The notes under the pieces: generated by a model
What the model saw: only the letters and a program-made list of their open reading frames with translations
The model's database searches: none
What the model was told of the DNA's origin: nothing
In this document: one piece after another, positions 30,077 through 42,680 of the stretch
Numbering within the stretch: the first letter of the stretch is position 1
Layout: each line of letters opens with the position of its first letter
DNA from: an uncultured Planctomycetaceae bacterium
GTDB taxonomy: Bacteria > Planctomycetota > Phycisphaerae > SM23-33
Assembly (NCBI GenBank): GCA_964607575.1
Contig: CAZSLS010000003.1
Location: forward strand, 10,887 to 74,886
Reading direction: 5' to 3'
DNA: 64,000 bases
Translations under genes and position numbers: made by a program

Positions 30077-33000
30077 ATGCCAAAAAGATCTCAAACGTAT
30101 GTTTCGTATATCATCTGCCTGACGGTCCTGGCGATGGCGACCGCGCCCGCCAGCGGGGGCGACTGGCCTCAGCAGAGGTACAACAACGCCAAAACCGCCG
30201 TCGTCCCCAAGGCGCCGCCGAGCGATTTGAAGCTGATGTGGGTCCGTCAACTCGCAACGCCGAAATCCGCCTGGCCGCCCAGCCAGGATCGCCTGCAGTT
30301 CGACACGTCCTACCACCCGATCGTCGCGGGCAAGCTCATGTTTGTCGGATCGATGATCACCGACAGCGTCACCGCATTCGATACGCGGACCGGGGCGGTC
30401 AAATGGCGGTTCTACACCTCCGGACCGGTGCGGTTTGCGCCGATGGCTTACAAGGGCAAGTTATACGTTACATCCGATGACGGATACCTCTACTGCCTGG
30501 GCGCCGCCGACGGCAAGTTGAACTGGAAGTTCCGCGGCGGTCCGGGCGATCGCAGGGTTATCGGAAACGATCGCCTGACGGGTATGTGGCCCGCGCGGGG
30601 CAGCGCGATGGTCTTCGAGGGCAAGGTCTACTTCGGTGCGGGGATCTGGCCGTTCATGGGTACGTTCGTACACTGCCTCGATGCCGAAACGGGCAAGGTC
30701 ATATGGACAAAGAGCGGTACGGAGTGGAAGAGCCTGCCACACGGCGGGGCGACCTCGTTTTCATCGCTTGCGCCGCAGGGGTATCTGGCGATCTCGGAAG
30801 ATTGGCTTTATGTTCCGTGCGGTCGGGCCGTACCGGCGGTGTTCGAGCGAAAGACCGGGAAGCTCGTCTATTTCCACCAGTCCTCCGGTAAGAAAGGGGG
30901 CGGGTGCTACGTGACGATCTTCGGTAATTACTTCTGGGTTCCGGGTTTCATTTCTAAGAAGAAACACAAGAACGGTAAGAAAGACGGAAAAGGCATGCTG
31001 GGCGCCCCGCGCGACGGCGTGTTTGCCCAAGAGGCTGTGTACCGCGCCTCGGAGAACAGGCTCTGGGTCCTCGATACCGAACCGGAAAAAATCACCCGCT
31101 ACGCCATCGAGTATGGAAGGAAGAAGAGAATAACCGAGCTGATCTTGAAACCGAAGCACATCATTCTGCTCAAGCCCGCGATCGCGAAGGTGTTCTTCAA
31201 AGCGGGCGATTTCCTCTACGGATCGGCGAACGATCAGACGGTGGTGGCGATAGACGTCTCGAAGAACGACAAACCGAAGATCACATGGCAGGGCAAGGTC
31301 GACGGGGAAGTGTGGACCATGATCACCGGCGACGACAAGGTCTTCGCCGTCACGCTGTCGGGCAGTATCTACTGTTTCGGCGCGGGGACCGACAAGCCGC
31401 TGAAATACGAGCTGGAAGCTCCCGCGGAGACGAAAGAAAACGCAAAATGGGCCTCGGGCGTCAAGAAGGCGATAGAGGCCGCAGCTACCGATGAGGGCTA
31501 CTGCGTGCAGTTGGGGCTCGCCGGCGGCGGGATGGTTGACGAACTCGTCAGGCAGTCGAAGTTCCACATCGCGGTCGTCGACAGTGACGCCGCCAAGATC
31601 GATTCGCTGCGTCGCAGAATGGATGCCGCGGGCCTGTATGGGCGGAGGGTTGTAGCATTCGTCGGCGACCCGGCGACGTTCGAGTTTCCCCAGTACCTCG
31701 CGAATCTGATTATCTCGCCGTCGGCCAAACTGGCGGGCGCCTGCAAAGAGGGCAGCCGACCGGCAGCGACGCTTCGCCCGTACGGCGGGGTGATCTGCAT
31801 CGCCGACGGTGGAGATATGAAAGTCGTGCTGAATCGCCGGGGCGCATTACCCGGAAGCGGGACCTGGACTCACCAGTACGGCGATTCGGCCAGGACCGTG
31901 CTGTCGAAAGACCGCGCAGTGAAGCTGCCGCTGGGGCTCCTGTGGTTCGGCGGTCCGTCGAACGATGCGATCCTTCCGCGACATGGACACGGACCCTCGC
32001 CGCAGGTGGTTGGCGGAAGGTTGTTCATCGAGGGACGCCACATGATGCGGGCGGTGGACGTGTATACCGGGCGGCTTCTCTGGCAGCGAGAGATCGATGA
32101 TCTCGGACGTTTTTACGATAACACCCTGCACCATCCCGGCGCCGGTCAGATTGGCAGCAACTACGTTTCGCTGGCTGACGGTATATACGTCATGACGCCC
32201 AAATCCTGCCAGGTGCTCGATCCGGTCGACGGGAAAACCCTGCGCACGCTTACCCTGCCCAACCAGGACGGTTCCAAGGCCAAGTGGGGCTGGATGACGG
32301 TCTGGGACGATCTGCTGCTGGCCGCGGCCAAACCGATCCACGTCCAGGCGCCCAAACTGAAACGAGGCGAGAAGTATCCGAAAGTCGTGCTCGGGAAGGC
32401 CTTCGAAAATATCCTCGGCGTGGAAATCAACGCGACCTACGCGTCGGCTTCCAAGAAACTGGTCGTGATGGACCGCAAGAGCGGAAAGGTGCTCTGGTCG
32501 CGCGACGCGGTGTCTAACTTCCGCCACAACGCCATTGTACTCGCCGGCGACAAAGTGTTCTGCATCGATGCAATGAGTCGCGGAAAACTCGGATGGATCA
32601 AGCGCCGCGGGCTCAAACTCGAGCGACCGGCCACACTGTACGCCCTCGACGCGCGAACGGGCAAGGTCATCTGGAAGACCGATGAAGATGTATTCGGCAC
32701 GTGGTTGGCGTATTCGGCGGAGCATGACGTGCTGGTGCAATGCGGCAGCGCATACCGCGACCGTGCGTTTGACGATGTCGGTAAGGGGATAACGGTCTAC
32801 CGGGCCAAGAGCGGAAAGGTGGTATGGACGGACCTGAAGATATCCTACGGCGGTCCGCTGATCCTCTACCACGATCGGCTTATCACAAACGGTTCCCGCG
32901 GATACGGTCTGGAGTTGATGACCGGCAGGAAGACGGGCTGGAAATGGTCGCGAACGTACGGTTGCAATACCGCCATCGCCTCGGAGAACCTGCTCACGTT

Positions 33001-33811
33001 CCGCTCGGGTGCGGCGGGATACTACGACCTTACGAACGAAAGCGGTACGGGCAATTTCGGCGGGTTCAAGTCGAGTTGCACCGCTAATTTGATAGTGGCA
33101 GACGGCGTACTCAACGCGCCGGACTACACGCGCACGTGTACGTGCAGCTACCAGAACCAGAGTTCCCTCGCGCTGGTCCACATGCCGGAAGTTGAAACGT
33201 GGACCTACGCGAGTGTGTTCAAGCCCGGTAGCAATATTGGCCTGAACTTCGGGGCGCCCGGAAACCGCCTGACCGGCGATGGAACGTTCTGGAAGAATGT
33301 GTCGGCGAGAGGTTTCAGGAAACCCAAACCGCCGGCGAAACCCAAGCCGACAACGAAGCCCGTGGAACCCACGGTCCTCTTCGAGCCTCCCGTCGGCGTA
33401 AAGATCAAGGGTAAGAAGCCGGAAAAGGATGAAAAGGAAGAAAAGGAAGAGTGCTTCAACCACCACTCTTCGGTCTTCACCGGCTCGCCCCACGCCTGGG
33501 TGGGTGCATCGGGACTCGTCGGAGCAGCGAGTATTATCATAGACACCGACATCTCGCCCGTTGCGGTGCGTTTGTACTTTGCAGAGCCCGACGCCTCAAC
33601 CAAACCCGGCGGGAGAGTTTTTACCGTGTCGATTGACGGTAAGGAAGTGTTGAAAGACTTCGACATCGTAGCCGCCGCCGGCGGGCCGAAAAAAGTGATC
33701 GCAAAAGAGTTTAAATATTCAAAAACCGACAAGCCGATCGAAATAACACTCAAAGCCGCGTCGGGTAAAACGCTGCTGTGCGGTGTTGAACTGCTGGTCG
33801 AGAAAAAGTAG
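30077..33811 (+). CDS. Giant secreted PQQ-like beta-propeller protein with a methyltransferase-like insert and a C-terminal malectin-like domain
   Basis: Propeller blades: VTAFDTRTGAVKWRF, LYCLGAADGKLNWKF, VHCLDAETGKVIWT, MRAVDVYTGRLLWQ, LVVMDRKSGKVLWS, LYALDARTGKVIWK. Rossmann-like insert CVQLGLAGGGMVDEL...IAVVDSD. KPKPPAKPKPTTKP / EKDEKEEKEE linker. VRLYFAEPD...GGRVFTVSIDGKEVLKDFDIVAAAGG is malectin-like. Confidence 0.7.
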   Translation: MPKRSQTYVSYIICLTVLAMATAPASGGDWPQQRYNNAKTAVVPKAPPSDLKLMWVRQLATPKSAWPPSQDRLQFDTSYHPIVAGKLMFVGSMITDSVTAFDTRTGAVKWRFYTSGPVRFAPMAYKGKLYVTSDDGYLYCLGAADGKLNWKFRGGPGDRRVIGNDRLTGMWPARGSAMVFEGKVYFGAGIWPFMGTFVHCLDAETGKVIWTKSGTEWKSLPHGGATSFSSLAPQGYLAISEDWLYVPCGRAVPAVFERKTGKLVYFHQSSGKKGGGCYVTIFGNYFWVPGFISKKKHKNGKKDGKGMLGAPRDGVFAQEAVYRASENRLWVLDTEPEKITRYAIEYGRKKRITELILKPKHIILLKPAIAKVFFKAGDFLYGSANDQTVVAIDVSKNDKPKITWQGKVDGEVWTMITGDDKVFAVTLSGSIYCFGAGTDKPLKYELEAPAETKENAKWASGVKKAIEAAATDEGYCVQLGLAGGGMVDELVRQSKFHIAVVDSDAAKIDSLRRRMDAAGLYGRRVVAFVGDPATFEFPQYLANLIISPSAKLAGACKEGSRPAATLRPYGGVICIADGGDMKVVLNRRGALPGSGTWTHQYGDSARTVLSKDRAVKLPLGLLWFGGPSNDAILPRHGHGPSPQVVGGRLFIEGRHMMRAVDVYTGRLLWQREIDDLGRFYDNTLHHPGAGQIGSNYVSLADGIYVMTPKSCQVLDPVDGKTLRTLTLPNQDGSKAKWGWMTVWDDLLLAAAKPIHVQAPKLKRGEKYPKVVLGKAFENILGVEINATYASASKKLVVMDRKSGKVLWSRDAVSNFRHNAIVLAGDKVFCIDAMSRGKLGWIKRRGLKLERPATLYALDARTGKVIWKTDEDVFGTWLAYSAEHDVLVQCGSAYRDRAFDDVGKGITVYRAKSGKVVWTDLKISYGGPLILYHDRLITNGSRGYGLELMTGRKTGWKWSRTYGCNTAIASENLLTFRSGAAGYYDLTNESGTGNFGGFKSSCTANLIVADGVLNAPDYTRTCTCSYQNQSSLALVHMPEVETWTYASVFKPGSNIGLNFGAPGNRLTGDGTFWKNVSARGFRKPKPPAKPKPTTKPVEPTVLFEPPVGVKIKGKKPEKDEKEEKEECFNHHSSVFTGSPHAWVGASGLVGAASIIIDTDISPVAVRLYFAEPDASTKPGGRVFTVSIDGKEVLKDFDIVAAAGGPKKVIAKEFKYSKTDKPIEITLKAASGKTLLCGVELLVEKK

Positions 33812-33834
33812 TTCAGGCCCGCGGGCAACCACGA

Positions 33835-35382
33835 ATGAGAGATAACATGACCAGACAAATTACACTGTCACTGATAGCCTGCGCGTGCGGAATCGCGGGG
33901 GTCGCTTCGCCCCTCCCCGCCGGCGACCAGCCCCAGTGGGGTCAAAAGCACACGCGAAACATGATCTCCGACGAGAAGGGCATCGCCGACAACTTCACCG
34001 GCGTCGAGAACGCCAAAGGCGTCAAGTGGACCGCCCGTCTGGGATCGATAACCTACGCCAGTCCGGTAGTGGCTGAGGGCAAGATACTGATCGGGACCAA
34101 TAACCGCCATCCGCGCGACGATCGCCACCAGGGCGACCGCGGCGTGTTGATGTGCTTTAACGAAGCCGACGGGAAGTACCTCTGGCAACTGGTCGTGCCC
34201 AAGCTCAAATCCGTCAGGTACGGCGATTGGCATTACTGCGGAATATCGTCGTCTCCGGTCGTGGCGGACTCCCGGGTATACGTCACGTCCAATCGGTGCG
34301 AGGTGCTCTGTCTCGATATCAACGGGCTGGCCGATGGAAACGCCGGACCGTATCGCGACGAAGGGCAGCACATGGTCGCGCCCGGGAAAGAAGCCCTCAA
34401 GCCGCTGAAGACCGACGCCGACATCATCTGGCGGTTCGACATGAAGGCCGCTCCCGTCGGCGCTGTTCCCCACAATGCAACAAACTGCTCGATTCTCGTC
34501 GACGGCGATCTGCTGTACGTATCGACGGCCAACGGCGTGGACTGGAAGCACGTAAACGTAGCCAATCCCAGGGCGCCCAGCATCATCGTTCTCAACAAGA
34601 AGTCGGGCAAGCTGGTCGCTGTCGATAACGCCAATATCGGCCCGGATATCTTCCACGGTCAGTGGTCGTCGGCGACGCTGGGCAAGGTGGGCAAGAAAAA
34701 GCAGATATTCTTCGGCGGCGGCGATGGTTTGTGCTACGGGTTCGAGGCCCTCGACCCCTCGCTGGACACCGGCGGGAATACGCTCAAGAAGCTCTGGAAA
34801 TTCACCTGCGACACCACCGCCCGCAAGGTCGAAGGCGGGGCGAGCAGCTATCCCAAAGCGCCCGACAGCCCCACGGTTATCGTCTCCATGCCCGTGTTCT
34901 ACAAGAATCGCGTGTATGTAGCCGCCGGGGGCGACCCGTGGCACGGTAAGCGCCTCGGCGGGCTGTACTGCATCGACGCCACGAAGACCGGCGACATCAC
35001 AAAATCCGGCCGCATATGGTCTTACATGGGCCTGGGGCAGTCAATTGCCACCGTTTCCATCAAGGATGGGCTGGTATACATCGCCAGCTACGGTGGGCTA
35101 ATACACTGCCTCGACGCCGAAACCGGCAAGCTGTATTGGAAGCACGATACCAGCGGGGAGATATACGGGTCCACGATGGTGGTTGACGGAAAGGTCTACG
35201 TCGGAACCGGTGTAAGGCGCAGAGGCGAACTGTGGATACTGGCGGCCGGGAAGAAGAAGAAGGTAATCAGGCAGATTCGCCTCGACGCGGTGATTCACTC
35301 GACACCGACAGTCGCCAACGGCAGGCTCTACGTCGCCACGGGCGAAACTCTCTACGTGGTGGAAGGCAAGAAGGGCAAGTAG
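33835..35382 (+). CDS. Secreted PQQ-like beta-propeller repeat protein
   Basis: Signal-like TRQITLSLIACACGIAGVASP (an alternative ATG is at 33847). Blades: VLMCFNEADGKYLWQ, LIHCLDAETGKLYWKH, NGRLYVATGETLYVV. Confidence 0.75.
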   Translation: MRDNMTRQITLSLIACACGIAGVASPLPAGDQPQWGQKHTRNMISDEKGIADNFTGVENAKGVKWTARLGSITYASPVVAEGKILIGTNNRHPRDDRHQGDRGVLMCFNEADGKYLWQLVVPKLKSVRYGDWHYCGISSSPVVADSRVYVTSNRCEVLCLDINGLADGNAGPYRDEGQHMVAPGKEALKPLKTDADIIWRFDMKAAPVGAVPHNATNCSILVDGDLLYVSTANGVDWKHVNVANPRAPSIIVLNKKSGKLVAVDNANIGPDIFHGQWSSATLGKVGKKKQIFFGGGDGLCYGFEALDPSLDTGGNTLKKLWKFTCDTTARKVEGGASSYPKAPDSPTVIVSMPVFYKNRVYVAAGGDPWHGKRLGGLYCIDATKTGDITKSGRIWSYMGLGQSIATVSIKDGLVYIASYGGLIHCLDAETGKLYWKHDTSGEIYGSTMVVDGKVYVGTGVRRRGELWILAAGKKKKVIRQIRLDAVIHSTPTVANGRLYVATGETLYVVEGKKGK

Positions 35383-35385
35383 CGG

Positions 35386-36702
35386 TTACGCGGGCGTCCA
35401 TACGCCGGCGATTCGCGTATCGCAAAACTTGCAGGCGCCCTTGTCGATATTGACCTGTTCAACCGTGTACCCAATGCGCTGGACGACTGTTTTCTCGCAC
35501 TTGGGGCACAAGGTTGTTTCGGCGTCTTTTACCCCGCCGACATTACCGATGTACGGATATCGCAGCCCGGCGCGTCTTGCTATCTCGCGAGCTTCGAGCA
35601 GTGTCTTGATCGGTGTCGGGGGCAGGTGCTTCAACAGGTGGCGGGGTGAGAAGCGGCTGAAGTGGATCGGATAGTCGGGCCCGATATTATCGACGAGCCA
35701 TTTGCACATGTCAGCCATGACGCGCAAATCGTCGGTGTATGTGGGCACGACGAGATTGGTGACCTCGAACCACACGCCGCGATCCTTCAGCGTCTTGAGA
35801 GTATCCAGGATCGGCTGGAGCTTACCCGAGTTGAGCTTCTGGTAGATCGCCGCGTCGAAGCCCTTGAGGTCAACGTTGGCTGCGTCGATGACTTCGCAGA
35901 GTTCTTTCAGAGGATCGGGGTTGATGTACCCGCACGTGACCCATACGTTTCGGATGCCCCGAGCCTTGGCGAGCTTTGCCGTATCGTACATGTACTCGTA
36001 GAAGACTGTGGGCTCGGAGTAAGTATACGCCAGCGACGCACAGTTCATACGTTCTGCCAGCGACACCGCGTCGGCGGGCAGCAGGCTCAGGCGGTCCTTC
36101 ACTCCCGGGCGGTTAAGCATGCCGAGCGTCGTGGTCCTCAGGCGGAACTCCTCGCCCCGCGGGTCTTTGAGTTCTTCGGGCTTGCGCTGCGATATATCCC
36201 AGTTCTGGCAGTTCAGGCACCTGAATCCGCACCCGGAAGTCGCCAGTGAAAATGTCTTGCTGGCGGGCAGGAAGTGGAAGAGCGGTTTCTTCTCGATGGG
36301 GTCCAGACCGAACGAACAGGGGTTCGCGTAGACCAGCGTGTACATCTTACCGTCCTTGTTGATGCGGTTCCTGCATCGCCCGCGGTCTTCGGGCTCGAGG
36401 AGGCAGTCATTGGGGCAGAGCAGACACTGGACGTTCGGGCCGAGTTTGCGATAGTGGCGAGCCTCTTTGGTCCAGCGGCGTCCCTGCCACTGAGCCCACA
36501 GCTCACCGGAAGGCGCATCTTTCTTGAATACACTGGCTGCCGAAGCCGCCGCGCGCCGCATCACGTGCCACGTCGCCGCGCACACGCCGGACACCGACGC
36601 CAGGGCGATCGCTCCGTACTTCAGGACGCTCCTGCGCGATATTCCCGCGGTTTTCGCGGCCGGTGCGGTCACTTCTTCGTTCGTCTGCCGATCCATCCCC
36701 AC
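35386..36702 (-). CDS. AmmeMemoRadiSam-system radical SAM enzyme with a twin-arginine-type N-terminus
   Basis: GCGFRCLNCQNW (CxxxCxxC), an upstream Cys cluster CLLCPNDCLLEPEDRGRCRNR, and PFL-activase-like overall order. The N-terminus has ISRRSVLKYGAIALASVSGVCAA. Its stop lies 3 nt from the stop of the convergent gene. Confidence 0.85.
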   Translation of the reverse strand: MGMDRQTNEEVTAPAAKTAGISRRSVLKYGAIALASVSGVCAATWHVMRRAAASAASVFKKDAPSGELWAQWQGRRWTKEARHYRKLGPNVQCLLCPNDCLLEPEDRGRCRNRINKDGKMYTLVYANPCSFGLDPIEKKPLFHFLPASKTFSLATSGCGFRCLNCQNWDISQRKPEELKDPRGEEFRLRTTTLGMLNRPGVKDRLSLLPADAVSLAERMNCASLAYTYSEPTVFYEYMYDTAKLAKARGIRNVWVTCGYINPDPLKELCEVIDAANVDLKGFDAAIYQKLNSGKLQPILDTLKTLKDRGVWFEVTNLVVPTYTDDLRVMADMCKWLVDNIGPDYPIHFSRFSPRHLLKHLPPTPIKTLLEAREIARRAGLRYPYIGNVGGVKDAETTLCPKCEKTVVQRIGYTVEQVNIDKGACKFCDTRIAGVWTPA

Positions 36703-36959
36703 CTCCTCATGGCCATGTAAGTGCTGGCCGCCGCGTGCACGAGAACCAACCCCGCCAGCGGCCAGACGAATGTCTGGTGTATCGCCAAGGCGGTGTCGCT
36801 GTCCAGCAGTTTCTCAAAACTCCACGTTCCGCTCATCGCAAAACCGCTCACAATACATAATAGCGTCAATAACAGCAGGAACCACCCGGATATTCGGATA
36901 GTTTTGATCATGTAGAAGTTCAGTGTCTTCCTGGCCATTTCAAGCTCTCTTGCAGTCAT
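36669..36959 (-). CDS. Small two-helix membrane protein with conserved-looking His residues, unknown function
   Basis: The ATG at 36959 overlaps the upstream stop (ATGA at 36956-36959). Helices ISGWFLLLLTLLCIVSGFAM and ALAIHQTFVWPLAGLVLVHAAA. The 3' end overlaps the radical SAM start by 34 nt. Confidence 0.5.
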   Translation of the reverse strand: MTARELEMARKTLNFYMIKTIRISGWFLLLLTLLCIVSGFAMSGTWSFEKLLDSDTALAIHQTFVWPLAGLVLVHAAASTYMAMRRWGWIGRRTKK

Positions 36960-39142
36960 TTCGGCGACCGCAGCAGGATTATCGTCCCGCCGGCGGCCTT
37001 CAACGCCACCGCCACCACGCATACTCCGATCACGCCGATCAGCGGGATCAGCAGCGTACTGACCAGCAGCGCCCCCAGCGCCGCTCCGACCAGGTCGGCG
37101 GTGTAAAGCCGCGAAGCCGTCGGCGCGAGCCCTGAGAAATTTGCCTTACCGGCCAGCGGAAACTCCATACCCGCCAGCAAGCCGAGTATCAGCGTCGCGC
37201 ACGGGACCGCTATTTGCGAACAGGTCGACATCAACTGTGGATCGGCGATCCCGGCCAGCGCAGTCAGCATCACAGGCAGGAGTCCCGCGTAGATCGCCAG
37301 GGCAAACTCCAGCTTTGCCAGTCCGCGAGCGGTCCAGTGGTTCAGCATCCGGTTCATCGCCAGCGAGCCCAGCGACAGGCCCAACATGAACATCGTCACT
37401 ATCAGGCCAATATTATGATACAAGCTGCCCTGGAGAATCTGAAAGCCCAACAGCAGCACGATCTCCAGAGACGCCACAGAAAAGCCCGTGGTGAAAATCG
37501 CCAGCGGTACGGCCCGGAGGCGGATCACGTAAATCAGCAGGATTATCAGAAGCACCGCTTCGAGTGCGCCGGTCTGGTATTTGAATCGGCTAAGCCAGTA
37601 CTGCAGGTGATAGTAATACCCGACGGGGTGCAGGTCCCTGTTGACCGGCGCGTCGGGGGAAATCGCGCGACGCACGTCAGCAATTCGGTCGGCGGTCAGA
37701 ATACCGGTGAGATAGTTGGCGTTAACGTACTGGTTGCTGATACCGGCCGCTTCGATCCGTTCGGCGATGTCCATGGTCAACTCGCCGTCCGACGCCAGGA
37801 GGAACGTTCGCCCGGCTGGAACGATCAGAGACTCGCTGAAGACAGTTTCAAGCGTTCGATGCGCCGTCCCGATAAGCTGCGCCAACTCCTTGCTGAGGTA
37901 GTTGCGGTATTGTCCCATGGATATGCACAGCACGCCGCGCGGCGCGAGGGCGCGTTTGACCTCTCCGAAAAACTCGACCGTGTAGAAACGGTTGAGTTGT
38001 GAGGTCGAAGGGTCGGGAACGTTGACGATCACCACGTCGTACTCACCGGCGGCCTGGCGGACGAACATGCGACCGTCGGTATTGAACGTGCGTATCCGCG
38101 GGTCGTCCAGGCTCGCGGGCAGGTATTTGCGCGAAACCTCCAGGATCAGCGGATCGAGCTCCACGTAGTCCACTTGGGCGTTGGGGTACTTGAGTATCTC
38201 CCGGGCCGATCCCGCCACACCGCCGGATATCAATAGCACGCGCCGCGCTTTGGGGCGCTGGGCCATCGCGTAGTGTACCGACTCCTCGGCGCTTATGATA
38301 TTGTGCGTCGACAGGAGCGGAAGACCGTTCTGGATGAAAGTATGCTGCCCCGACGATTCGGTGACCACCAGGCTGCCGTACGGTGAATTGCCCCTGTAAA
38401 CAACACGCTGCGGGGCGTATTGAATTTGCGTGGATATCCCGTCGAGGTTTCCGGACCATGCCCCGCCAATCGCGATCGCCCCGAGGGCGACCAGCGCCCA
38501 AGCCGGTATCCTCGGGCGGAGCATCGCCGCAACGCACCCGGCCAGCAGCAGGTTCAACACCGCCGGTACGTACAGGATTCCGAAATGATCCTTCAGCAGG
38601 TGAATCAGCACGAAGCTGAACAGCACGCCGCCGACAATTTCACCGATGCTGTCGAGGAAATACACCCTTCCGATACCCGCGGAAGTCTTGTCGGACGTGA
38701 GGATCCTGCACGACAGGATCAGCAGGTATCCGGTAATCAGGCAGTACGGCGCCAGAAGCACGAAGCAACTGAGCACCGCGGGGGTTACGCCGATGGCCTC
38801 ACCGCGAATGAATACGACATTCCTCAGCGTTCTAAGTGCGAATACCGAGGCAATGGGTCCGACGGAGATAGCGATCTGTGCGACCAGGAGCACCCACAAC
38901 GGATTTTTGAGCCTCGATGTCGTCCTTCCCAGCCATGCGCCGAGCCCCGCCAACAGCAGCCAATTCCCCAGGATTATCCCGAAGATCATCTCGTTGCCCG
39001 CCAGGACACTCAGAAACTCGCGCATCAGCGTGAGCTGCGTGACGATCGACGAGACGCCCAGCGCGCACACGGAGAGAAAAAGCACAACCCGGCGCCGGCC
39101 CACGCCGTCACTCATTGTTATCGCCGAGGGTTTCGTGTTCAT
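36956..39142 (-). CDS. Polytopic membrane protein with a spermidine synthase-like (aminopropyltransferase-fold) central domain (fused MFS-like/spermidine synthase type)
   Basis: VLLISGGVAGSAREILKY, VDYVELDP and YDVVIVNVPDPSTSQLNRFYTVEFF form a SpeE-like core. It is flanked by about 7 N-terminal and about 6 C-terminal hydrophobic helices. The alternative start at 39115 gives an 8-nt overlap with the upstream gene. Confidence 0.75.
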   Translation of the reverse strand: MNTKPSAITMSDGVGRRRVVLFLSVCALGVSSIVTQLTLMREFLSVLAGNEMIFGIILGNWLLLAGLGAWLGRTTSRLKNPLWVLLVAQIAISVGPIASVFALRTLRNVVFIRGEAIGVTPAVLSCFVLLAPYCLITGYLLILSCRILTSDKTSAGIGRVYFLDSIGEIVGGVLFSFVLIHLLKDHFGILYVPAVLNLLLAGCVAAMLRPRIPAWALVALGAIAIGGAWSGNLDGISTQIQYAPQRVVYRGNSPYGSLVVTESSGQHTFIQNGLPLLSTHNIISAEESVHYAMAQRPKARRVLLISGGVAGSAREILKYPNAQVDYVELDPLILEVSRKYLPASLDDPRIRTFNTDGRMFVRQAAGEYDVVIVNVPDPSTSQLNRFYTVEFFGEVKRALAPRGVLCISMGQYRNYLSKELAQLIGTAHRTLETVFSESLIVPAGRTFLLASDGELTMDIAERIEAAGISNQYVNANYLTGILTADRIADVRRAISPDAPVNRDLHPVGYYYHLQYWLSRFKYQTGALEAVLLIILLIYVIRLRAVPLAIFTTGFSVASLEIVLLLGFQILQGSLYHNIGLIVTMFMLGLSLGSLAMNRMLNHWTARGLAKLEFALAIYAGLLPVMLTALAGIADPQLMSTCSQIAVPCATLILGLLAGMEFPLAGKANFSGLAPTASRLYTADLVGAALGALLVSTLLIPLIGVIGVCVVAVALKAAGGTIILLRSPK

Positions 39143-40694
39143 GGAAGGCTTCGACCTGGTAGGTCAGCACGGTCAGACCGGGCTTTCGCCAGTCTGTCGG
39201 CGCCATGCCCGCTTTGCGCGACAACTGGCCGAGGAATGTCTTCTTGTCGGGCATCTGACCCCAGACCTGGGGAAGATATGTCGATTGCATGCGACCTTTT
39301 CTCAGAATCACTCCGTCGATGTGCGGGCGGAGCCTGGCGAGCAAATCTTCGGGAGATTTGAATTTCAGCGGTTTGGGGACCGTAAGAACGCTGATTTCGA
39401 TCTCGATCTTGTCCAATTCGTCCGGTTTAACCGGTTTGAATCGCGGGTCTTTGGTCGCTGCGCTGCCGGTCATGTCCAGCACTTCCTGGTAGAGGGGTTG
39501 TTTTGGGAAGAATCCTCCGATGCAACCCCGCAGTCGTCCGGACCGCTTCAGCGTTACGAAGCAGGTTTTCGGTTCGAGAAGTTGTTTGGGGATTTCGGCG
39601 GTGTTGATCTTCGGGGGCCCTTGCCCTTTGGCGGTCTGAAGGAGCGTCTTGCGGGCGAGGGTCATGAGGAACTTCCGCTCCGCCGGACCGTACGTATCGC
39701 CCTCGGCCGCGGCGCTGCCGGTGTCTGATGCGGTGGGGTCGTAGAATGCAATTGCGGTATATCCGACAACCCTGGAGGTATCTCCCGTTGCGTCTCCGCT
39801 GTTGCAGGCGTTCAGCAGGCGGGTCTTCCATCCCTTGAGTTTGGCCAGGTGCATTAGCGAGAGGATCGGTTCGGCGCCGCACGCTTCCTGTGCGGCCATT
39901 GCGTCGGTGTCGAGTTTGCAGATGGTCTCGACGCACTTGGCGTCCAGTTTTCGGGCGACGTCGTAGGGTTTGTGATGGCTCAGATCGCTGCTGGCGATCA
40001 CGATGGTCTTATCGTCGACGTGCTTTGCGAGCACGCGGGCCAGTTCCTTCGTGTCGGCGTTGCGGAGTACGGCGGGGACCAGCCGGAAGTCCTTCAGCGT
40101 CTTCTGGAGGAAGGGCAGTTGGACCTCCAGCGAGTGTTCCCACGTGTGGGGCGTGTCCTGTCCGAAGGGGGGCAGTTCCTTGCGCGCCTGGCGCCACCAT
40201 CCGGGGCGTTGGACCTGGCAGGGGGGTTTGGATACAAACGGGCCCTTACCGACCAGTTTACGCGCCAGCGGCGAGAGGGCGATCAGTCCCAACGGTGTGC
40301 GATAGGCCTCTACATCGGGGATCGAGGCGCCGCGATATCCCCCCGCGTAATGGCTCGGCGCCAGGACGATCGCCGTACGAATACCCCTGCCTTCGAGTTG
40401 CTTGTAAGCCGCCGCCGCCGTCTTGCCGGAATAACGATAACCCGCATGCGGACATACCAGACCTCGCAGACCCTTGATGCCCAGCGGCTTGGCCCCGACA
40501 AGAAGACCATCCACCATCTCCGACAGCTTCTGCTTGCTGGCAGGATAGAACATGCCCGACACCGCGGGCTCGCGAACGTTCGTGAATTCGCGATCCGCTG
40601 CCTGTCTGTCCCGGTCGTTTTCGTTATCCACCCCGCGGCCGCAACCGATCAATATCCCCACTATCACAATCAGAAACGTAGACACTCGGTACAT
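39108..40694 (-). CDS. Fused Memo-like (AmmeMemoRadiSam protein B) and AMMECR1-like (protein A) lipoprotein
   Basis: Start chosen at MYRVSTFLIVIVGILIGC (lipobox LIGC). The Memo half has GMFYPASK, VCPHAGYRYSG and SSDLSHH. The AMMECR1 half has CFVTLKRSGRLRGCIGGF and IEISVLT. Confidence 0.85.
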   Translation of the reverse strand: MYRVSTFLIVIVGILIGCGRGVDNENDRDRQAADREFTNVREPAVSGMFYPASKQKLSEMVDGLLVGAKPLGIKGLRGLVCPHAGYRYSGKTAAAAYKQLEGRGIRTAIVLAPSHYAGGYRGASIPDVEAYRTPLGLIALSPLARKLVGKGPFVSKPPCQVQRPGWWRQARKELPPFGQDTPHTWEHSLEVQLPFLQKTLKDFRLVPAVLRNADTKELARVLAKHVDDKTIVIASSDLSHHKPYDVARKLDAKCVETICKLDTDAMAAQEACGAEPILSLMHLAKLKGWKTRLLNACNSGDATGDTSRVVGYTAIAFYDPTASDTGSAAAEGDTYGPAERKFLMTLARKTLLQTAKGQGPPKINTAEIPKQLLEPKTCFVTLKRSGRLRGCIGGFFPKQPLYQEVLDMTGSAATKDPRFKPVKPDELDKIEIEISVLTVPKPLKFKSPEDLLARLRPHIDGVILRKGRMQSTYLPQVWGQMPDKKTFLGQLSRKAGMAPTDWRKPGLTVLTYQVEAFHEHETLGDNNE

Positions 40695-40828
40695 GGTATT
40701 AGTCCTCGTGCTGCCAATGATAACATCACATTTATTATACCCCATTGGCGGTGTATTTTAACCCGCATGTCCCTAAAGTGCGGATATATGCTTGAAAGAT
40801 GCCCCCGGGAGCATACTATCTTATAGAA

Positions 40829-42145
40829 ATGAGTGATGTCAGATTACAAGTTGCGTTGGATTTCCTCGAACTCCCGCGAGCGATGGATGTCGCCAGGTCG
40901 GCTGTTGCCGGCGGCGCCGACTATATCGAAGCCGGTACGCCGCTGATCAAGTCCGAAGGGTTAGACGCGGTCAGGCGGCTCCGCGAGATGTTCCCGGACA
41001 AGACGATCATCGCGGACATGAAGACGATGGACGCCGGGAAGATCGAAGCCCAGGCCGCCGCCAAGGCGGGCGCCAATATCATCACCGTTTCCGGGACCGC
41101 TTCCCTGCCGACCATCAGGGAATGTGTCGAGGTCGGCGCCCATTACGGGATCGAAGTCGCTGTCGATCTGCTGGGCGTTCTCGATCCGGTTGCTTTTGCC
41201 TCCCAGGCCGGTGAGTTGGGCGTGGCGTGGCTTGACGTGCATTGTCCCATCGATCAGCAGATGTCCGGGCAGGACCCGCTGGCGGTTCTCAAACAGGTCC
41301 GCGGCGCGACCGATCTGATACTGGCCGTCGCAGGTGGGATCAATAGCGAGACGGCGCCCGACGCGGTCGCCGCCGGCGCCGACGTCGTGATTGTCGGCGG
41401 GGCGATCACCAAGGCCGTCGACCCCCAACAGGCAACCGCTGATATTCGCGCCGCCATCGATTCGGGACAGTCCGTCGCCAGCGATCTGTTCAAACGAGTC
41501 TCGGCCGACACCATCCGCCAGGTACTCCAGACGGTTCGCACTTCCAATATTTCAGACGGTAGTCATCGCCTCGAATGTCTCGAGGGGATAAGGCCTTTGA
41601 GTCCCGGTCAGTTCGCCTGCGGACCGGCGGTTACCGTTCGGACACTTCCGGGCGACTGGGCCAAGTCCGTCGAAGCCATCGACATCGCACAACCGGGGGA
41701 CGTGATTGTGGTCGACGCCTGCAGCAAGCCCCCGGCGATCTGGGGCGAACTGGCCACCGAGAGCGCAAAGGCAAAAGGTATCGCAGGTCTCGTCGTTGAC
41801 GGGGCGGTGCGAGATACCGCCGATATCCGGAGACTCGAGTTCGACGTCTGGACCCGCCACATTACCAGCCACGCCGGCGATCCGCACGGGCATGGCGAGA
41901 TAAACCAGCCAATCCAGGTCGGCGGGCAGGCAGTCGCGCCGGGAGACTGGATCGTAGCCGACGATGACGGCGTGATGGTGCTGCCAAAGGTCCGCGCGGT
42001 CGAAATGGCAAACCGCGCCGCCGACGTCCTCGAAGCCGAAAACCGCATCCGTCAGGAAATCCGAGACGGTAAGGGTACGCTCGGGCAGGTCATAAACCTG
42101 CTGCGATGGGAGAAGCAAGGAGGCAACCGTGCCATCATGGGATAA
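40829..42145 (+). CDS. Bifunctional 3-hexulose-6-phosphate synthase / RraA-like domain fusion protein
   Basis: The N-half is of the OMP-decarboxylase/HPS family (LQVALDF, IIADMKTMDAG, VAGGINSETAPDAVAAGADVVIVGGAI). The C-half is RraA-like (GDVIVVDA...IWGELATESAKAKGIAGLVVDGAVRD). Confidence 0.8.
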   Translation: MSDVRLQVALDFLELPRAMDVARSAVAGGADYIEAGTPLIKSEGLDAVRRLREMFPDKTIIADMKTMDAGKIEAQAAAKAGANIITVSGTASLPTIRECVEVGAHYGIEVAVDLLGVLDPVAFASQAGELGVAWLDVHCPIDQQMSGQDPLAVLKQVRGATDLILAVAGGINSETAPDAVAAGADVVIVGGAITKAVDPQQATADIRAAIDSGQSVASDLFKRVSADTIRQVLQTVRTSNISDGSHRLECLEGIRPLSPGQFACGPAVTVRTLPGDWAKSVEAIDIAQPGDVIVVDACSKPPAIWGELATESAKAKGIAGLVVDGAVRDTADIRRLEFDVWTRHITSHAGDPHGHGEINQPIQVGGQAVAPGDWIVADDDGVMVLPKVRAVEMANRAADVLEAENRIRQEIRDGKGTLGQVINLLRWEKQGGNRAIMG

Positions 42146-42680
42146 AAATGCAGTCCGAGCCGCCGGAAAGGGGCTCCTGGATCGTATAGACGCGGTCATG
42201 GTCGAGGCCGACTGGTCCGGTTTCGTCGAACTCGCGGACATGGTTCCCCAAGTCGACAGGACGTTCCTGACCGGAGCCGGGCGATCCGGACTCGTGGCCA
42301 GGAGTTTCGGTATGCGCCTCATGCACGCGGGGCTTCCCGCATTCATTCCCGGAGAAACCGTCACACCCGCCGCCAGCGCCGGCGACCTGCTCGTGGCCGT
42401 CAGTTGCACCGGAACCACCGGATACACCGAGTACCTCGCACGCCGCGCGCGAGAACTGGGCGCGAAAGTTATCGTCATCACCGCCGAGGCCCAGTCGCCG
42501 ATGGCGCTGGGAGCCCACAAAGTTATTCTCGTACCGGCTAGAGGCGACGACATAGTCGTGCGGGCAGCCGTGTTTGAACACGCCGCGAGCCTCTGTCTCG
42601 ACGCAGTTTTCAACATACTCGTCGACAGACTGAAACTAGACGCGGATTCACTGAGGCAGCGCCACGCGAATCTCGAATAA
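42129..42680 (+). CDS. 6-phospho-3-hexuloisomerase (SIS domain)
   Basis: GTG start with AAGGAGG 7 nt upstream, overlapping the HPS gene by 17 nt. TGAGRSGLVARSFGMRLMHAG and LLVAVSCTGTT. Confidence 0.8.
   Translation: MPSWDKNAVRAAGKGLLDRIDAVMVEADWSGFVELADMVPQVDRTFLTGAGRSGLVARSFGMRLMHAGLPAFIPGETVTPAASAGDLLVAVSCTGTTGYTEYLARRARELGAKVIVITAEAQSPMALGAHKVILVPARGDDIVVRAAVFEHAASLCLDAVFNILVDRLKLDADSLRQRHANLE

Follow-up and report, generated by a model that had tools for sequence, protein, structure and literature searches.

A conserved four-gene AmmeMemoRadiSam operon whose products all carry export or membrane signals and may face the cell envelope

A 64,000-nucleotide stretch of DNA from an uncultured Planctomycetaceae bacterium (the window, to which all coordinates refer) raises the question of whether an AmmeMemoRadiSam system can operate at or beyond the cytoplasmic membrane. 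A prior reading made without database searches (the sequence-only reading) had described four overlapping, co-directional minus-strand genes here, assigned them to families, and inferred a membrane or outward-working variant of a system usually discussed as cytoplasmic. An ORF check confirmed the four same-direction genes and their overlaps, and the family assignments were upheld by curated models. The operon and its associated elements are as follows:

40734..40761, minus strand: promoter-like site, TTAAAA, 16-nt spacer, TATAAT, 10 of 12 consensus matches, upstream of the operon
39108..40694, minus strand: gene 1, Memo-AMMECR1 fusion, 528 aa (longest possible ORF from 40745)
36956..39115, minus strand: gene 2, polytopic protein of 719 aa, with six TM helices and a linker TM helix, a SpeE-fold domain, then a linker TM helix and six TM helices
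36669..36959, minus strand: gene 3, two-helix protein of 96 aa, similar to one half of a cytochrome b, in which His61 and His75 are invariant
36669..36709, minus strand: coupling element, gene 3 RRWGW codons (AGGAGGTGGGGATGG) holding the ribosome-binding site and ATG of gene 4
35386..36696, minus strand: gene 4, AmmeMemoRadiSam radical SAM enzyme, 436 aa (TIGR04337, 330.7 bits against a cut-off of 220)

Genes 1 and 2 overlap by 8 nt at ATGAGTGA (39108-39115), or by 35 nt with a start at the upstream ATG (39142), while the stop of gene 2 and the start of gene 3 share the ATGA at 36956-36959. The overlap of genes 3 and 4 is 28 nt with the ATG at 36696, which is preceded by AGGAGG; the 34 nt given by the earlier reading holds for the GTG at 36702. 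Gene 1 most likely begins at the ATG at 40694 (MYRVSTFLIVIVGILIGC), with GAGGA upstream, a start favoured because the promoter-like site, itself no more than a consensus match, falls within the longer version of the ORF. In public gene calls the products of genes 1, 2 and 4 have 528, 719 and 436 aa, and the gene 2 product has a database match of 100% identity that is likewise 719 aa long; the 728 aa originally proposed for gene 2 was adjusted to this start. For gene 3 the public call is a longer ORF of 117 aa, and the 96-aa version with the ATGA-coupled start is probably to be preferred, given that the orthologs are 85-100 aa in length. Of 51 bacterial loci, 49 keep the gene 3/radical SAM gene overlap, at 4-100 nt and most commonly 28 nt, and the embedded ribosome-binding site may account for part of the RRWGW conservation in gene 3. 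Sequence and comparison show a single, translationally coupled four-gene operon, found as a unit in distant phyla.

A scan with the SpeE-like protein of gene 2 recovered more than 571 related places, of which 80 loci were kept for gene-order comparison. The gene set recurs in most of these, spanning Planctomycetota, Verrucomicrobiota, Acidobacteriota, Myxococcota, Spirochaetota and DPANN archaea. In most planctomycetal and verrucomicrobial loci, and also in acidobacterial and myxococcal ones, the genes are ordered fusion, SpeE-like, small, radical SAM; the set is rearranged in Spirochaetota and DPANN, where the small gene is mostly missing, and most archaeal loci lack it. No other neighbour was common to more than 8 of the 80 loci. 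The arrangement is far beyond chance: this set surrounds the SpeE-like gene again and again, in at least six phyla. A related locus (L085) bears signals but is missing both the SpeE-like and the small gene; together with the incomplete archaeal loci it implies that neither gene is a universal solution to the supply of SAM or electrons.

The operon matches all three models of the canonical, still uncharacterised AmmeMemoRadiSam three-gene system (TIGR04335, TIGR04336 and TIGR04337) above their cut-offs, with the genes co-located, and shares its radical SAM cysteine motifs and the AMMECR1 LRGCIG. It differs from the canonical system in the fusion of Memo and AMMECR1, in the export or membrane signal found on every protein, and in the addition of two conserved subunits, namely the 14-helix MFS-like/SpeE-fold protein and the two-helix di-histidine protein. 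The gene 1 product combines the Memo-like (TIGR04336, 218.8 bits) and AMMECR1-like (TIGR04335, 195 bits) modules in one polypeptide:

40641..40694, minus strand: lipoprotein-type signal, MYRVSTFLIVIVGILIG followed by C, lipobox LIGC, read from sequence
39750..40571, minus strand: Memo-like domain (PF01875, 158 bits, residues 59-332 of the 545-aa ORF)
39144..39662, minus strand: AMMECR1-like domain with LRGCIG (PF01871, 157 bits, residues 362-534 of the 545-aa ORF)

At nearly every locus the Memo and AMMECR1 orthologs are equipped with a lipobox cysteine, an anchor or an AxA signal peptide, and where the two are not fused each gene encodes its own N-terminal hydrophobic segment. In gene 1 orthologs the most hydrophobic N-terminal stretch of 13 residues averages 2.50 +/- 0.45 on the Kyte-Doolittle (KD) scale. 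The orientation of the two stand-alone AMMECR1 proteins is ambiguous, since K/R-rich flanks follow their hydrophobic segment. Sequence and comparison show that the fusion carries a lipoprotein or Sec signal, in the absence of experimental localisation.

The radical SAM enzyme displays the motifs CLLCPNDC...C, GCGFRCLNCQNW and CPKC...CKFC, behind an N-terminal extension lacking in canonical family members, which begin at about query residue 77-90:

36538..36696, minus strand: Tat-type signal, residues 1-53, with an SRRSVLK n-region, the h-region YGAIALASVSGVCAATW and a basic c-region with ASA|A

Across bacteria and archaea, about 59 of 62 radical SAM N-termini keep the RR and a G/A-rich, weakly hydrophobic stretch. 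Among ten diverse orthologs, the Tat-signal model TIGR01409 was the top match in seven and reached its cut-off in five (16.9-21.3 bits), four of them archaeal; it failed to recognise the verrucomicrobial, acidobacterial and myxobacterial examples scored in this set, and the window protein falls below it (12.7 against 16.7). The h-region has a KD value of 1.64 +/- 0.29, as against 2.50 +/- 0.45 for the gene 1-type Sec signals and 2.1-3.0 for the TM helices of the operon, and is probably too weakly hydrophobic for a typical anchor. A tatC gene adjoins the system in 5 of 7 archaeal (DPANN) loci (PF00902, 178-199 bits for the two scanned). K/R-rich sequence follows the hydrophobic segment. Sequence and comparison establish a conserved twin-arginine signal on this enzyme; export itself is inferred. 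The sequence-only reading had allowed that the N-terminus might be only a membrane anchor: as regards cleavage this cannot be excluded, whereas a cytoplasm-facing arrangement is disfavoured and appears unlikely. About a fifth of the nearest radical SAM family representatives have Tat-like N-termini, and hence the premise that AmmeMemoRadiSam is usually treated as cytoplasmic needs qualifying.

The gene 2 product had been described as a SpeE-like core with about 13 hydrophobic helices, and is here read as a 14-helix architecture (six plus a linker, a linker plus six):

38408..39115, minus strand: N-terminal seven-helix bundle, residues 1-236, MFS-half-like six helices and linker helix 7
37592..38407, minus strand: spermidine-synthase-fold domain, residues 237-508, predicted to lie outside the cytoplasm
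36959..37591, minus strand: C-terminal bundle, residues 509-719, linker helix 8 and a duplicate of the N-terminal six-helix bundle

It matches Pfam Spermine_synth (87.7 bits), the 'fused MFS/spermidine synthase' model NF037959 (61.4 against a cut-off of 40) and, over residues 10-409, PRK03612. Residues 537-714 match PRK03612 positions 23-196 (E 7e-14), a region also matched by the N-terminal bundle. An AlphaFold2 model shows seven helices, the domain, then six to seven helices. In Foldseek searches the N-terminal bundle (pLDDT 81.5) retrieved almost exclusively MFS transporters as top matches (query-normalised TM-score, TMq, 0.5-0.59), a similarity that is weak by E-value (0.02-0.2), and gene 2 had no match to the Pfam MFS models. 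The central domain recovered the whole SpeE fold (1uir, 3o4f and 1inl, E about 1e-11, target-normalised TM-score, TMt, about 0.7; phmmer against PDB, E 3.6e-20). Sequence and comparison, aided in part by the AlphaFold2 model, show an internally duplicated 6+6-helix MFS-like bundle with two extra central helices flanking the SpeE-fold domain. The 14-helix MFS transporters of the DHA2 type likewise have a 6+6 pseudo-repeat with two additional central helices, but gene 2 inserts a 270-residue enzyme-fold domain between them, on the predicted outer face. PRK03612 'polyamine aminopropyltransferase' and NF037959 proteins share the N-terminal helix bundle and SpeE-fold domain; gene 2 differs in its second bundle after the domain, its incomplete aminopropyltransferase signature and its fixation in an AmmeMemoRadiSam operon. 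Loop K+R counts alternate consistently, archaea included ('in' loops 2.2-4.8, 'out' loops 0.35-1.8). The domain is inferred to lie on the outer face of the membrane, given the two extra linker helices and the charge bias placing it opposite the K/R-rich loops; this is predicted topology without experimental localisation. In 81 sequences, G298, G299, G302, E319, D321 and D347 are invariant, and the Asp position of GGGDG holds V, I, A or L, a Y once, and an acidic residue in none; there is no conservation at the catalytic Tyr position, and the window protein has Asn in place of Asp173. This residue census shows that the adenosyl-binding residues are kept and the aminopropyltransferase-specific ones absent.

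In the gene 3 family R22, W26, A57, H61, H75 and R86 are invariant, and the two histidines are spaced i/i+14, as shown by sequence and comparison. PF01292 is matched by 23 of 26 members and PF01127 by 13 of 26, none shown to exceed the Pfam cut-off (window protein, PF01292 28.2 against 30.1), and relatives are labelled 'Ni,Fe-hydrogenase I cytochrome b subunit' in several sources. A search of PDB profiles yielded nothing relevant for this protein. By hhalign (probability 8.8%, E 0.0038; template verified) it aligns with helices III-IV of FdnI, H61/H75 falling on H155/H169 of helix IV, the two heme ligands reported in the 1KQF structure paper. The resemblance to FdnGHI and the [NiFe]-hydrogenases (FdnI, HyaC; PF01292) lies in the pairing of a Tat-exported Fe-S enzyme with a membrane cytochrome-b-type subunit. 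Where FdnI/HyaC have four helices, the small protein has two and would need to dimerize, and since the partner here is a radical SAM enzyme, electrons would run outward to a low-potential cluster. Its role as a cytochrome-b-type subunit and candidate electron wire is inferred from sub-threshold matches, as is heme binding.

Three results had been named in advance as refuting the outward-working reading: rejection of the lipobox and Tat calls, a radical SAM start at the internal Met (MRRAAAS), and lack of synteny of the SpeE-like and small genes with the system. None was obtained. The signals were judged by conservation and curated models, not by dedicated signal or topology predictors. The internal Met is rejected as a start because the upstream RR and hydrophobic region are conserved at the protein level in lineages without that Met, and at most loci both the SpeE-like and the small gene keep their synteny with the system.

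On balance, we therefore lean towards a conserved four-subunit, envelope-facing AmmeMemoRadiSam variant, with no experimental localisation in support. In this view, the radical SAM enzyme would fold and be loaded with Fe-S clusters in the cytoplasm, and Tat would carry it across the membrane, where it would be cleaved or remain N-terminally tethered; the Memo-AMMECR1 protein would be exported by Sec and then lipid-anchored. The SpeE-fold domain, positioned above the transporter-like bundle on the outer face, would bind an adenosyl compound, SAM more likely than decarboxylated SAM, with the bundle the obvious candidate for substrate or SAM delivery. A dimer of the small protein may form a four-helix, two-heme cytochrome b passing electrons from the cytoplasmic side to the exported enzyme, comparable to FdnI/HyaC partnering Tat-exported Fe-S enzymes. 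The three enzyme modules would jointly act on an outer-leaflet or periplasmic substrate, itself unidentified; the earlier suggestion of a lipid, polyamine or envelope-linked substrate remains a proposal only. Counting against this reading, neither SAM nor a low-potential reductant is known to be available outside the cytoplasm.

That objection is avoided by a membrane-tethered complex facing the cytoplasm, in which the signals are reverse (N-out, C-in) anchors, the SpeE-fold domain lies inside, and all SAM chemistry stays cytoplasmic on an inner-leaflet substrate. SAM, ferredoxin and flavodoxin are cytoplasmic, and this alternative also draws support from the K/R-rich stretches past the hydrophobic segment in the radical SAM and two stand-alone AMMECR1 proteins and from the sub-threshold Tat score of the window protein. 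We nevertheless consider it unlikely: lipobox cysteines (LIGC in the window, and in many orthologs) mark exported lipoproteins, SRRxFLK-type motifs are kept even in archaea and some pass TIGR01409, a TatC gene adjoins archaeal loci, the radical SAM h-region lacks the hydrophobicity of a typical anchor, and the two linker helices and charge bias set the SpeE domain opposite the K/R-rich loops.

External SAM would equally be unnecessary if the enzyme were exported by Tat preloaded with clusters and SAM for a single use, installing one modification or radical outside on the Memo-AMMECR1 lipoprotein in the style of an activating enzyme, with the SpeE-like protein working separately as a transferase or in transport. 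Proteins exported by Tat are already folded and hold their cofactors; the next-best matches of the TIGR04337 protein are glycyl-radical activating enzymes (e.g. PFL-AE), and L085 shows a signal-bearing system without the SpeE-like gene. However, no glycyl-radical-type target motif was identified, a reductant outside is still required, a dedicated cytochrome-like subunit coupled to the enzyme better fits repeated turnover, and the tight synteny of the SpeE-like gene is left unexplained, rendering this version improbable too. Least credible, and very unlikely, is the view that gene 2 encodes nothing more than a membrane-bound polyamine aminopropyltransferase or an exporter of polyamines, linked to the rest only by operon sharing. 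The 'spermidine synthase' annotation, the Spermine_synth and PRK03612 scores (87.7 and 206.9 bits) and the complete SpeE fold speak for it, but all equivalog cut-offs are missed (TIGR00417, 88.6 against 249.55; PRK03612, 206.9 against 472), the GGGDG Asp and catalytic Tyr are not retained, nor, in the window protein, is Asp173, and gene 2 travels with the AmmeMemoRadiSam genes in six phyla while other neighbours vary.

A literature search found no paper describing an envelope-facing AmmeMemoRadiSam operon. In the HXS antiphage system (PMC13128918), too, radical SAM chemistry is linked with a function in the periplasm and a Tat signal takes part; its radical SAM enzyme is apparently cytoplasmic and the matured effector reaches the periplasm, whereas in the present operon it is the radical SAM enzyme that bears the Tat-type signal. 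If the envelope-facing reading is true, this operon would represent SAM-dependent radical chemistry at the outer face of the membrane, a site where none has been described.

The four minus-strand open reading frames that fill positions 35386-40745 of the window sequence represent a new variant of the known but functionally unsolved AmmeMemoRadiSam system, all three components of which lie in this one operon and remain co-located at related loci. The family assignments are firm. Gene 1, in which Memo and AMMECR1 are fused in one polypeptide, scores 218.8 bits against the Memo-like model TIGR04336 (cut-off 26) and 195 bits against the AMMECR1-like model TIGR04335 (cut-off 99; residues 359-534 of the 545-aa ORF). 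Gene 4, the radical SAM enzyme, reaches 330.7 bits against TIGR04337 (cut-off 220), and its CxxxCxxC-bearing motif reads GCGFRCLNCQNW in the window sequence. Gene 2, a polytopic protein resembling spermidine synthase (SpeE), matches Pfam Spermine_synth PF01564 (87.7 bits, cut-off 22.9) and NF037959, a model of fused MFS/spermidine synthases (61.4 bits, cut-off 40). The family calls of the sequence-only reading, namely the three AmmeMemoRadiSam families and Spermine_synth, were upheld, all being above the model cut-offs, as were its overlaps at the gene boundaries, with one alternative of 28 nt now added to the 34 nt at the last of them. The features that define the layout are as follows.

40761-40734, minus strand: promoter-like TTAAAA-16-TATAAT upstream of the operon
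39108-39115, minus strand: overlap ATGAGTGA, 8 nt, or 35 nt from the ATG at 39142
36956-36959, minus strand: ATGA overlap, read in the sequence
36696 or 36702, minus strand: overlap of the small gene (gene 3) with the radical SAM gene, 28 nt from the ATG at 36696 that follows AGGAGG, or 34 nt from the GTG at 36702
36669-36709, minus strand: RRWGW codons, AGGAGGTGGGGATGG, containing the AGGAGG and ATG of the radical SAM gene

Genes 1 to 4 most likely encode proteins of 528, 719, 96 and 436 aa. Public gene calls on the identical contig give the same lengths for genes 1, 2 and 4, and a 719-aa database protein is 100% identical to gene 2. The small gene is called there from a 117-aa start; the ATGA-coupled 96-aa start is preferred here because its orthologs are 85-100 aa long. 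The genes that border the operon, OMPdecase-RraA in divergent and a PQQ-type beta-propeller in convergent orientation, are both unrelated to it. On the former side (40799-42680, plus strand), an OMPdecase/HUMPS-family domain is fused to an RraA-like domain in a gene that overlaps a SIS-domain gene and diverges from the operon; by inference these genes look like a hexulose-phosphate synthase/isomerase pair. On the latter side (30077-35382, plus strand), two genes in a row encode PQQ_2/BamB-like beta-propeller proteins, one of 1244 and one of 515 aa; both have hydrophobic N-termini, and the larger one carries a C-terminal Malectin domain.

A locus scan, in which an alignment of the SpeE-like protein was run against one genome per species, returned more than 571 related places, of which 80 loci were kept. 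These come from Planctomycetota (with MAGs assigned to Pirellulales among the carriers of the operon), Verrucomicrobiota (including metagenome-assembled genomes, MAGs, assigned to Methylacidiphilum and Akkermansiaceae), Acidobacteriota, a Polyangiaceae MAG, Spirochaetota and MAGs of Woesearchaeota/Nanoarchaeota, the closest relative being a Phycisphaerae MAG from 750 m in the Black Sea (85% identity). Gene order was judged by searching the ORFs of the 80 loci with the four proteins of the window, and the order fusion, SpeE-like gene, small gene, radical SAM gene was recovered in the large majority; about 10 loci have only the fusion and the SpeE-like gene within 5 kb, and the archaeal loci show the order SpeE-like gene, radical SAM gene, fusion. 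Neither accessory gene is universal, given that the small gene is mostly missing from the archaeal loci and that one metagenomic locus (L085) lacks both. Clustering of the flanking ORFs of the kept loci revealed no further common neighbour except tatC in the DPANN loci, the rest being lineage-level synteny; the biggest of the other clusters comprises 8 loci from a single lineage. The four-gene set is thus a conserved module and not a local accident, and the doubt left by the sequence-only reading, that the SpeE-like and small genes might not be syntenic with the system, is answered in most loci.

The radical SAM enzyme bears an N-terminal addition, given that canonical family members start at about residue 77-90 of the window protein. 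Within this addition the motif S20-R-R-S-V-L-K26 matches the twin-arginine consensus S/T-R-R-x-F-L-K, and it is followed by a basic c-region, HVMRRAAASA|A, with an AxA site ending ASA|A. An [STGAN]RRx-hydrophobic motif occurs within the first 70 residues of 105 of the 120 closest radical SAM homologs, and by inspection about 59 of 62 complete N-termini from the kept loci have the twin arginine (one has RK and two look frameshifted); examples are INRREFIKLSLAG in Spirochaetota, and LSRRDFLKYG and ISRRAFLKCAALG in DPANN archaea. Low hydrophobicity is a hallmark of Tat h-regions, and the Kyte-Doolittle value after the RR is 1.64 +/- 0.29 (n=63), as against 2.50 +/- 0.45 (n=65) for the Sec-type signal of the Memo-AMMECR1 partner; the helices of gene 2, at 2.1-3.0, also lie above it. 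The NCBI Tat-signal model TIGR01409 is the best match for seven of ten diverse orthologs; five of the ten reach its cut-off of 16.7, with scores of 16.9-21.3, and one falls below it at 16.3. Motif, h- and c-region and conservation hence bear out the twin-arginine-type signal noticed in the sequence-only reading, with the qualification that the window protein itself scores only 12.7 against this cut-off. An adjoining tatC is present in five of the seven DPANN loci (L051, L052, L060, L063 and L070) at a distance of about 2-4 kb, for instance at L063:10300-10998 on the minus strand, and the two DPANN ORFs scanned score 178-199 bits against PF00902 (TatC). No TatC is encoded in the 64-kb window. 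Tat-dependent export of the radical SAM enzyme is accordingly an inference with indirect support only, such as the adjacent tatC. As a separate observation, the archaeal radical SAM protein at L060:7191-8555 has a lipobox-like GIPAC after its Tat-type signal and could possibly be a Tat-dependent lipoprotein.

The Memo-AMMECR1 fusion of the window begins with MYR, followed by VSTFLIVIVGI and then L-I-G-C, a lipobox fitting [LVI][ASTVI][GAS]C. The lipobox proposed earlier for this protein therefore stands for the window, and it does not extend to every ortholog: a lipobox-like Cys is found in 16 of 22 Planctomycetota orthologs and some others. Essentially every complete N-terminus of this family nonetheless has a lipobox Cys, an AxA signal peptide or an anchor, including the archaeal MKKILIILLLMVLLGC. 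Two neighbouring genes encode Memo and AMMECR1 separately at L049:3006-4877 and at L006:847-2650, and each product has its own hydrophobic N-terminal segment; in these separate AMMECR1 proteins a K/R-rich stretch follows this segment, leaving the orientation ambiguous. Export signals on both the radical SAM enzyme and Memo-AMMECR1 are thus conserved features of the system.

AlphaFold2 (pLDDT 83.5) models the gene 2 protein with a soluble domain at residues 237-508, preceded by seven helices and followed by six or seven more. The soluble domain has a complete spermidine-synthase fold including the N-terminal beta-hairpin domain, as seen from Foldseek matches to 1uir, 3o4f and 1inl (about 270 columns, E ~1e-11, target-normalised TM-score ~0.7) and from a phmmer search (E 3.6e-20). 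The C-terminal bundle aligns to the same region of PRK03612 as the N-terminal one (E 7e-14), which shows the membrane part to be built from an internally duplicated six-helix unit. The earlier description of a polytopic protein with a spermidine-synthase-like core is retained with respect to the fold, and now reads as a 719-aa protein with duplicated six-helix units. When the N-terminal unit was modelled alone, almost all Foldseek matches were to MFS transporters, and these were weak (E 0.02-0.2, query-normalised TM-score 0.5-0.59); Pfam searches with the two isolated helix bundles gave no matches, including none to the Pfam MFS family. Helices 7 and 8 are additional to the duplicated units and enclose the SpeE domain, as would be expected if this domain lay on the face opposite to the ends of the six-helix units. 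Counts of K+R run 2.2, 1.0, 3.5, 1.8, 2.5, 0.5, 2.3 and then 1.0 (after helix 7) in the first half, and 1.9, 0.35, 4.8, 0.8, 1.4 and 1.65 in the second, an alternation also seen in the archaeal subset. Together, the duplication, the two extra helices and this alternation make an outside location of the SpeE-fold domain the likely inference.

Two alternative readings of individual genes were considered and rejected. Gene 2 might be a true spermidine synthase, a possibility suggested by its fold. In 81 family members the adenosyl-binding residues (G298, G299, G302, E319, D321 and D347) are invariant. Against the synthase reading, all SpeE equivalog cut-offs are missed (TIGR00417, 88.6 vs 249.55; PRK00811, 112.4 vs 260; PRK03612, 206.9 vs 472), and the active site differs: the acidic position of GGG(D/E)G is V300 in the window and V, I, A or L in 80 of 81 members, with one Y and never an acidic residue; the catalytic Tyr position is not conserved in the family; and the equivalent of Asp173 is N365 in the window and D in 71 of 81. 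An acidic residue at this position of GGG(D/E)G selects decarboxylated SAM, and work on putrescine N-methyltransferase versus spermidine synthase associates a hydrophobic residue there with SAM instead. Gene 2 thus has the SpeE fold and is not classed as a spermidine synthase. The other alternative, raised in the sequence-only reading as an observation that would refute the twin-arginine signal, places the start of the radical SAM protein at an internal Met (MRRAAASAAS); it fails because the upstream region is conserved at the protein level.

The SpeE-fold domain (37592-38407, minus strand) has in addition invariant residues of its own, E277, H281, P369, Q373, N375 and R376 (PDPSTSQxNR), which are missing from true spermidine synthases and are candidate binders of a carboxylate or the unknown acceptor.

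Gene 3 encodes the two-helix, His-bearing protein of about 96 aa noticed earlier, and its His61 and His75 prove to be invariant, along with R22, W26, A57 and R86, in 26 diverse members of a family of 503 clusters (listed members about 83-145 aa, most 85-100). The prokaryotic cytochrome b561 model PF01292 matches 23 of the 26 at E up to 1, and the succinate dehydrogenase cytochrome b model PF01127 matches 13 of 26, with no member shown to reach the Pfam cut-off for either; for PF01292 the gathering cut-off of 30.1 is missed at 28.2 bits by the 117-aa ORF and at 26.7 bits by the 96-aa protein. In the pipeline of one source, the label 'Ni,Fe-hydrogenase I cytochrome b subunit' is given to many relatives. 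When profiles were compared, the small protein aligned with helices III-IV of E. coli FdnI, the cytochrome b subunit of formate dehydrogenase-N (template sequence identical to 1kqf chain C), with H61 on His155 and H75 on His169; the 1KQF paper is reported to assign these two residues as ligands from helix IV to the hemes on the periplasmic and cytoplasmic sides. The statistics of this alignment are weak (E 0.0038, probability 8.8%), and a PDB profile search with the small protein gave only a chance match, GPAT1. The His pair has the i/i+14 spacing on one helix of the heme-ligating pair of prokaryotic cytochrome b. A two-helix chain would supply only half the ligands, and a homodimer forming a four-helix, two-heme cytochrome b is therefore postulated, an inference without heme-binding data or a multimer prediction. 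Of 51 bacterial loci, 49 have the 3' end of the small gene overlapping the start of the radical SAM gene, and the embedded AGGAGG and ATG argue for coupled, equimolar synthesis of the two proteins. Because this ribosome-binding site and start lie inside the RRWGW codons, part of the RRWGW conservation may be at the nucleotide level; the same overlap accounts for the conservation of MDQ/MDR at the start of the radical SAM enzyme.

The operon is established as a unit, as are its conserved signals, the gene 2 architecture and the di-histidine motif, and a working of the system can be proposed around these features. In this view, the radical SAM enzyme would be exported by Tat with its cluster loaded and Memo-AMMECR1 via the Sec/lipoprotein route, while the adenosyl-binding domain would face outward on the MFS-like bundle of gene 2. 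The small protein would serve as a heme wire reducing the exported enzyme, in the manner of the cytochrome b subunits that accompany Tat-exported FdnGH or hydrogenase small subunits, and SAM may be supplied by the MFS-like bundle or be carried through Tat on the enzyme. The redox potential of a b-type heme normally lies much too high for reduction of a radical SAM cluster; the membrane potential would help electrons moving outward. The bolder joint reading is radical SAM chemistry outside the cytoplasm, with a Tat-exported enzyme, a homodimeric two-heme half cytochrome b, an MFS-like exporter of SAM or substrate with an outward SAM-binding SpeE-fold dock and a lipid-anchored Memo-AMMECR1, modifying an envelope component in anaerobic bacteria and DPANN archaea; as a whole we consider it possible and less likely than not. 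Its claim with the highest stakes, catalysis outside the cytoplasm, is inferred, and is plausible and unproven.

A signal survey of the radical SAM family, covering its 150 nearest 50%-identity representatives (P0361-P0510), found 76 canonical proteins and about 28 with Tat-like N-termini (about a fifth of some 130 classifiable); export signals are therefore common in the family. A few have a plain N-terminal helix, and one (P0402) has a lipobox. Many of the Tat-like representatives are 370-396 aa long and lack the VFKNDAP...WKKRGW segment, and twelve representatives are long fusions of 600-1100 aa. A single-protein metagenome scan for other signal-bearing clades returned only two loci, the alignment of the other Tat-bearing representatives being too divergent for a locus scan. 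At L085:63-5874 (Ga0272441_10018373), a Tat-signal radical SAM gene (SRRTFI...ANA|AS) precedes a Memo-AMMECR1 fusion with a hydrophobic N-terminus, flanked by genes for an FMN_bind protein, a STAS protein, a polyprenyl synthetase and ApbE; in this single case FMN_bind and ApbE form a different extracytoplasmic flavin electron-transfer kit. AMMECR1 is reported as the strongest Pfam marker of anaerobes (PMC13386939), and both this and the habitats of the MAGs (peat, bog, groundwater and the deep Black Sea) fit an oxygen-sensitive enzyme exposed outside the cell. In the literature searched, no paper was found on the function of AmmeMemoRadiSam or on Memo, AMMECR1 and spermidine synthase together, a Tat-exported radical SAM enzyme is not described, and export signals of the family are not discussed, Burroughs et al. 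2019 (JBC, PMC6664185) being outside the scope; that study is reported to extend Memo gene contexts toward nucleotide-base and isoprenoid modification.

Conservation of AMMECR1 and Memo reaches from archaea to humans; they are linked to human disease and have no agreed biochemical function. An arrangement with all parts tied to the outer face of the membrane would restrict the substrate search to the envelope or outer leaflet. Two more conserved partners come with it, a transporter with a SAM-binding fold and a subunit of heme type, and these provide concrete experimental handles. If export is real, this would to our knowledge be the first radical SAM enzyme found to work outside the cytoplasm, in which case the manner in which SAM and low-potential electrons reach it becomes a sharp, testable question. 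Since Tat-like signals occur on about a fifth of the nearest representatives, this would concern a sizeable part of the family and not one oddity.
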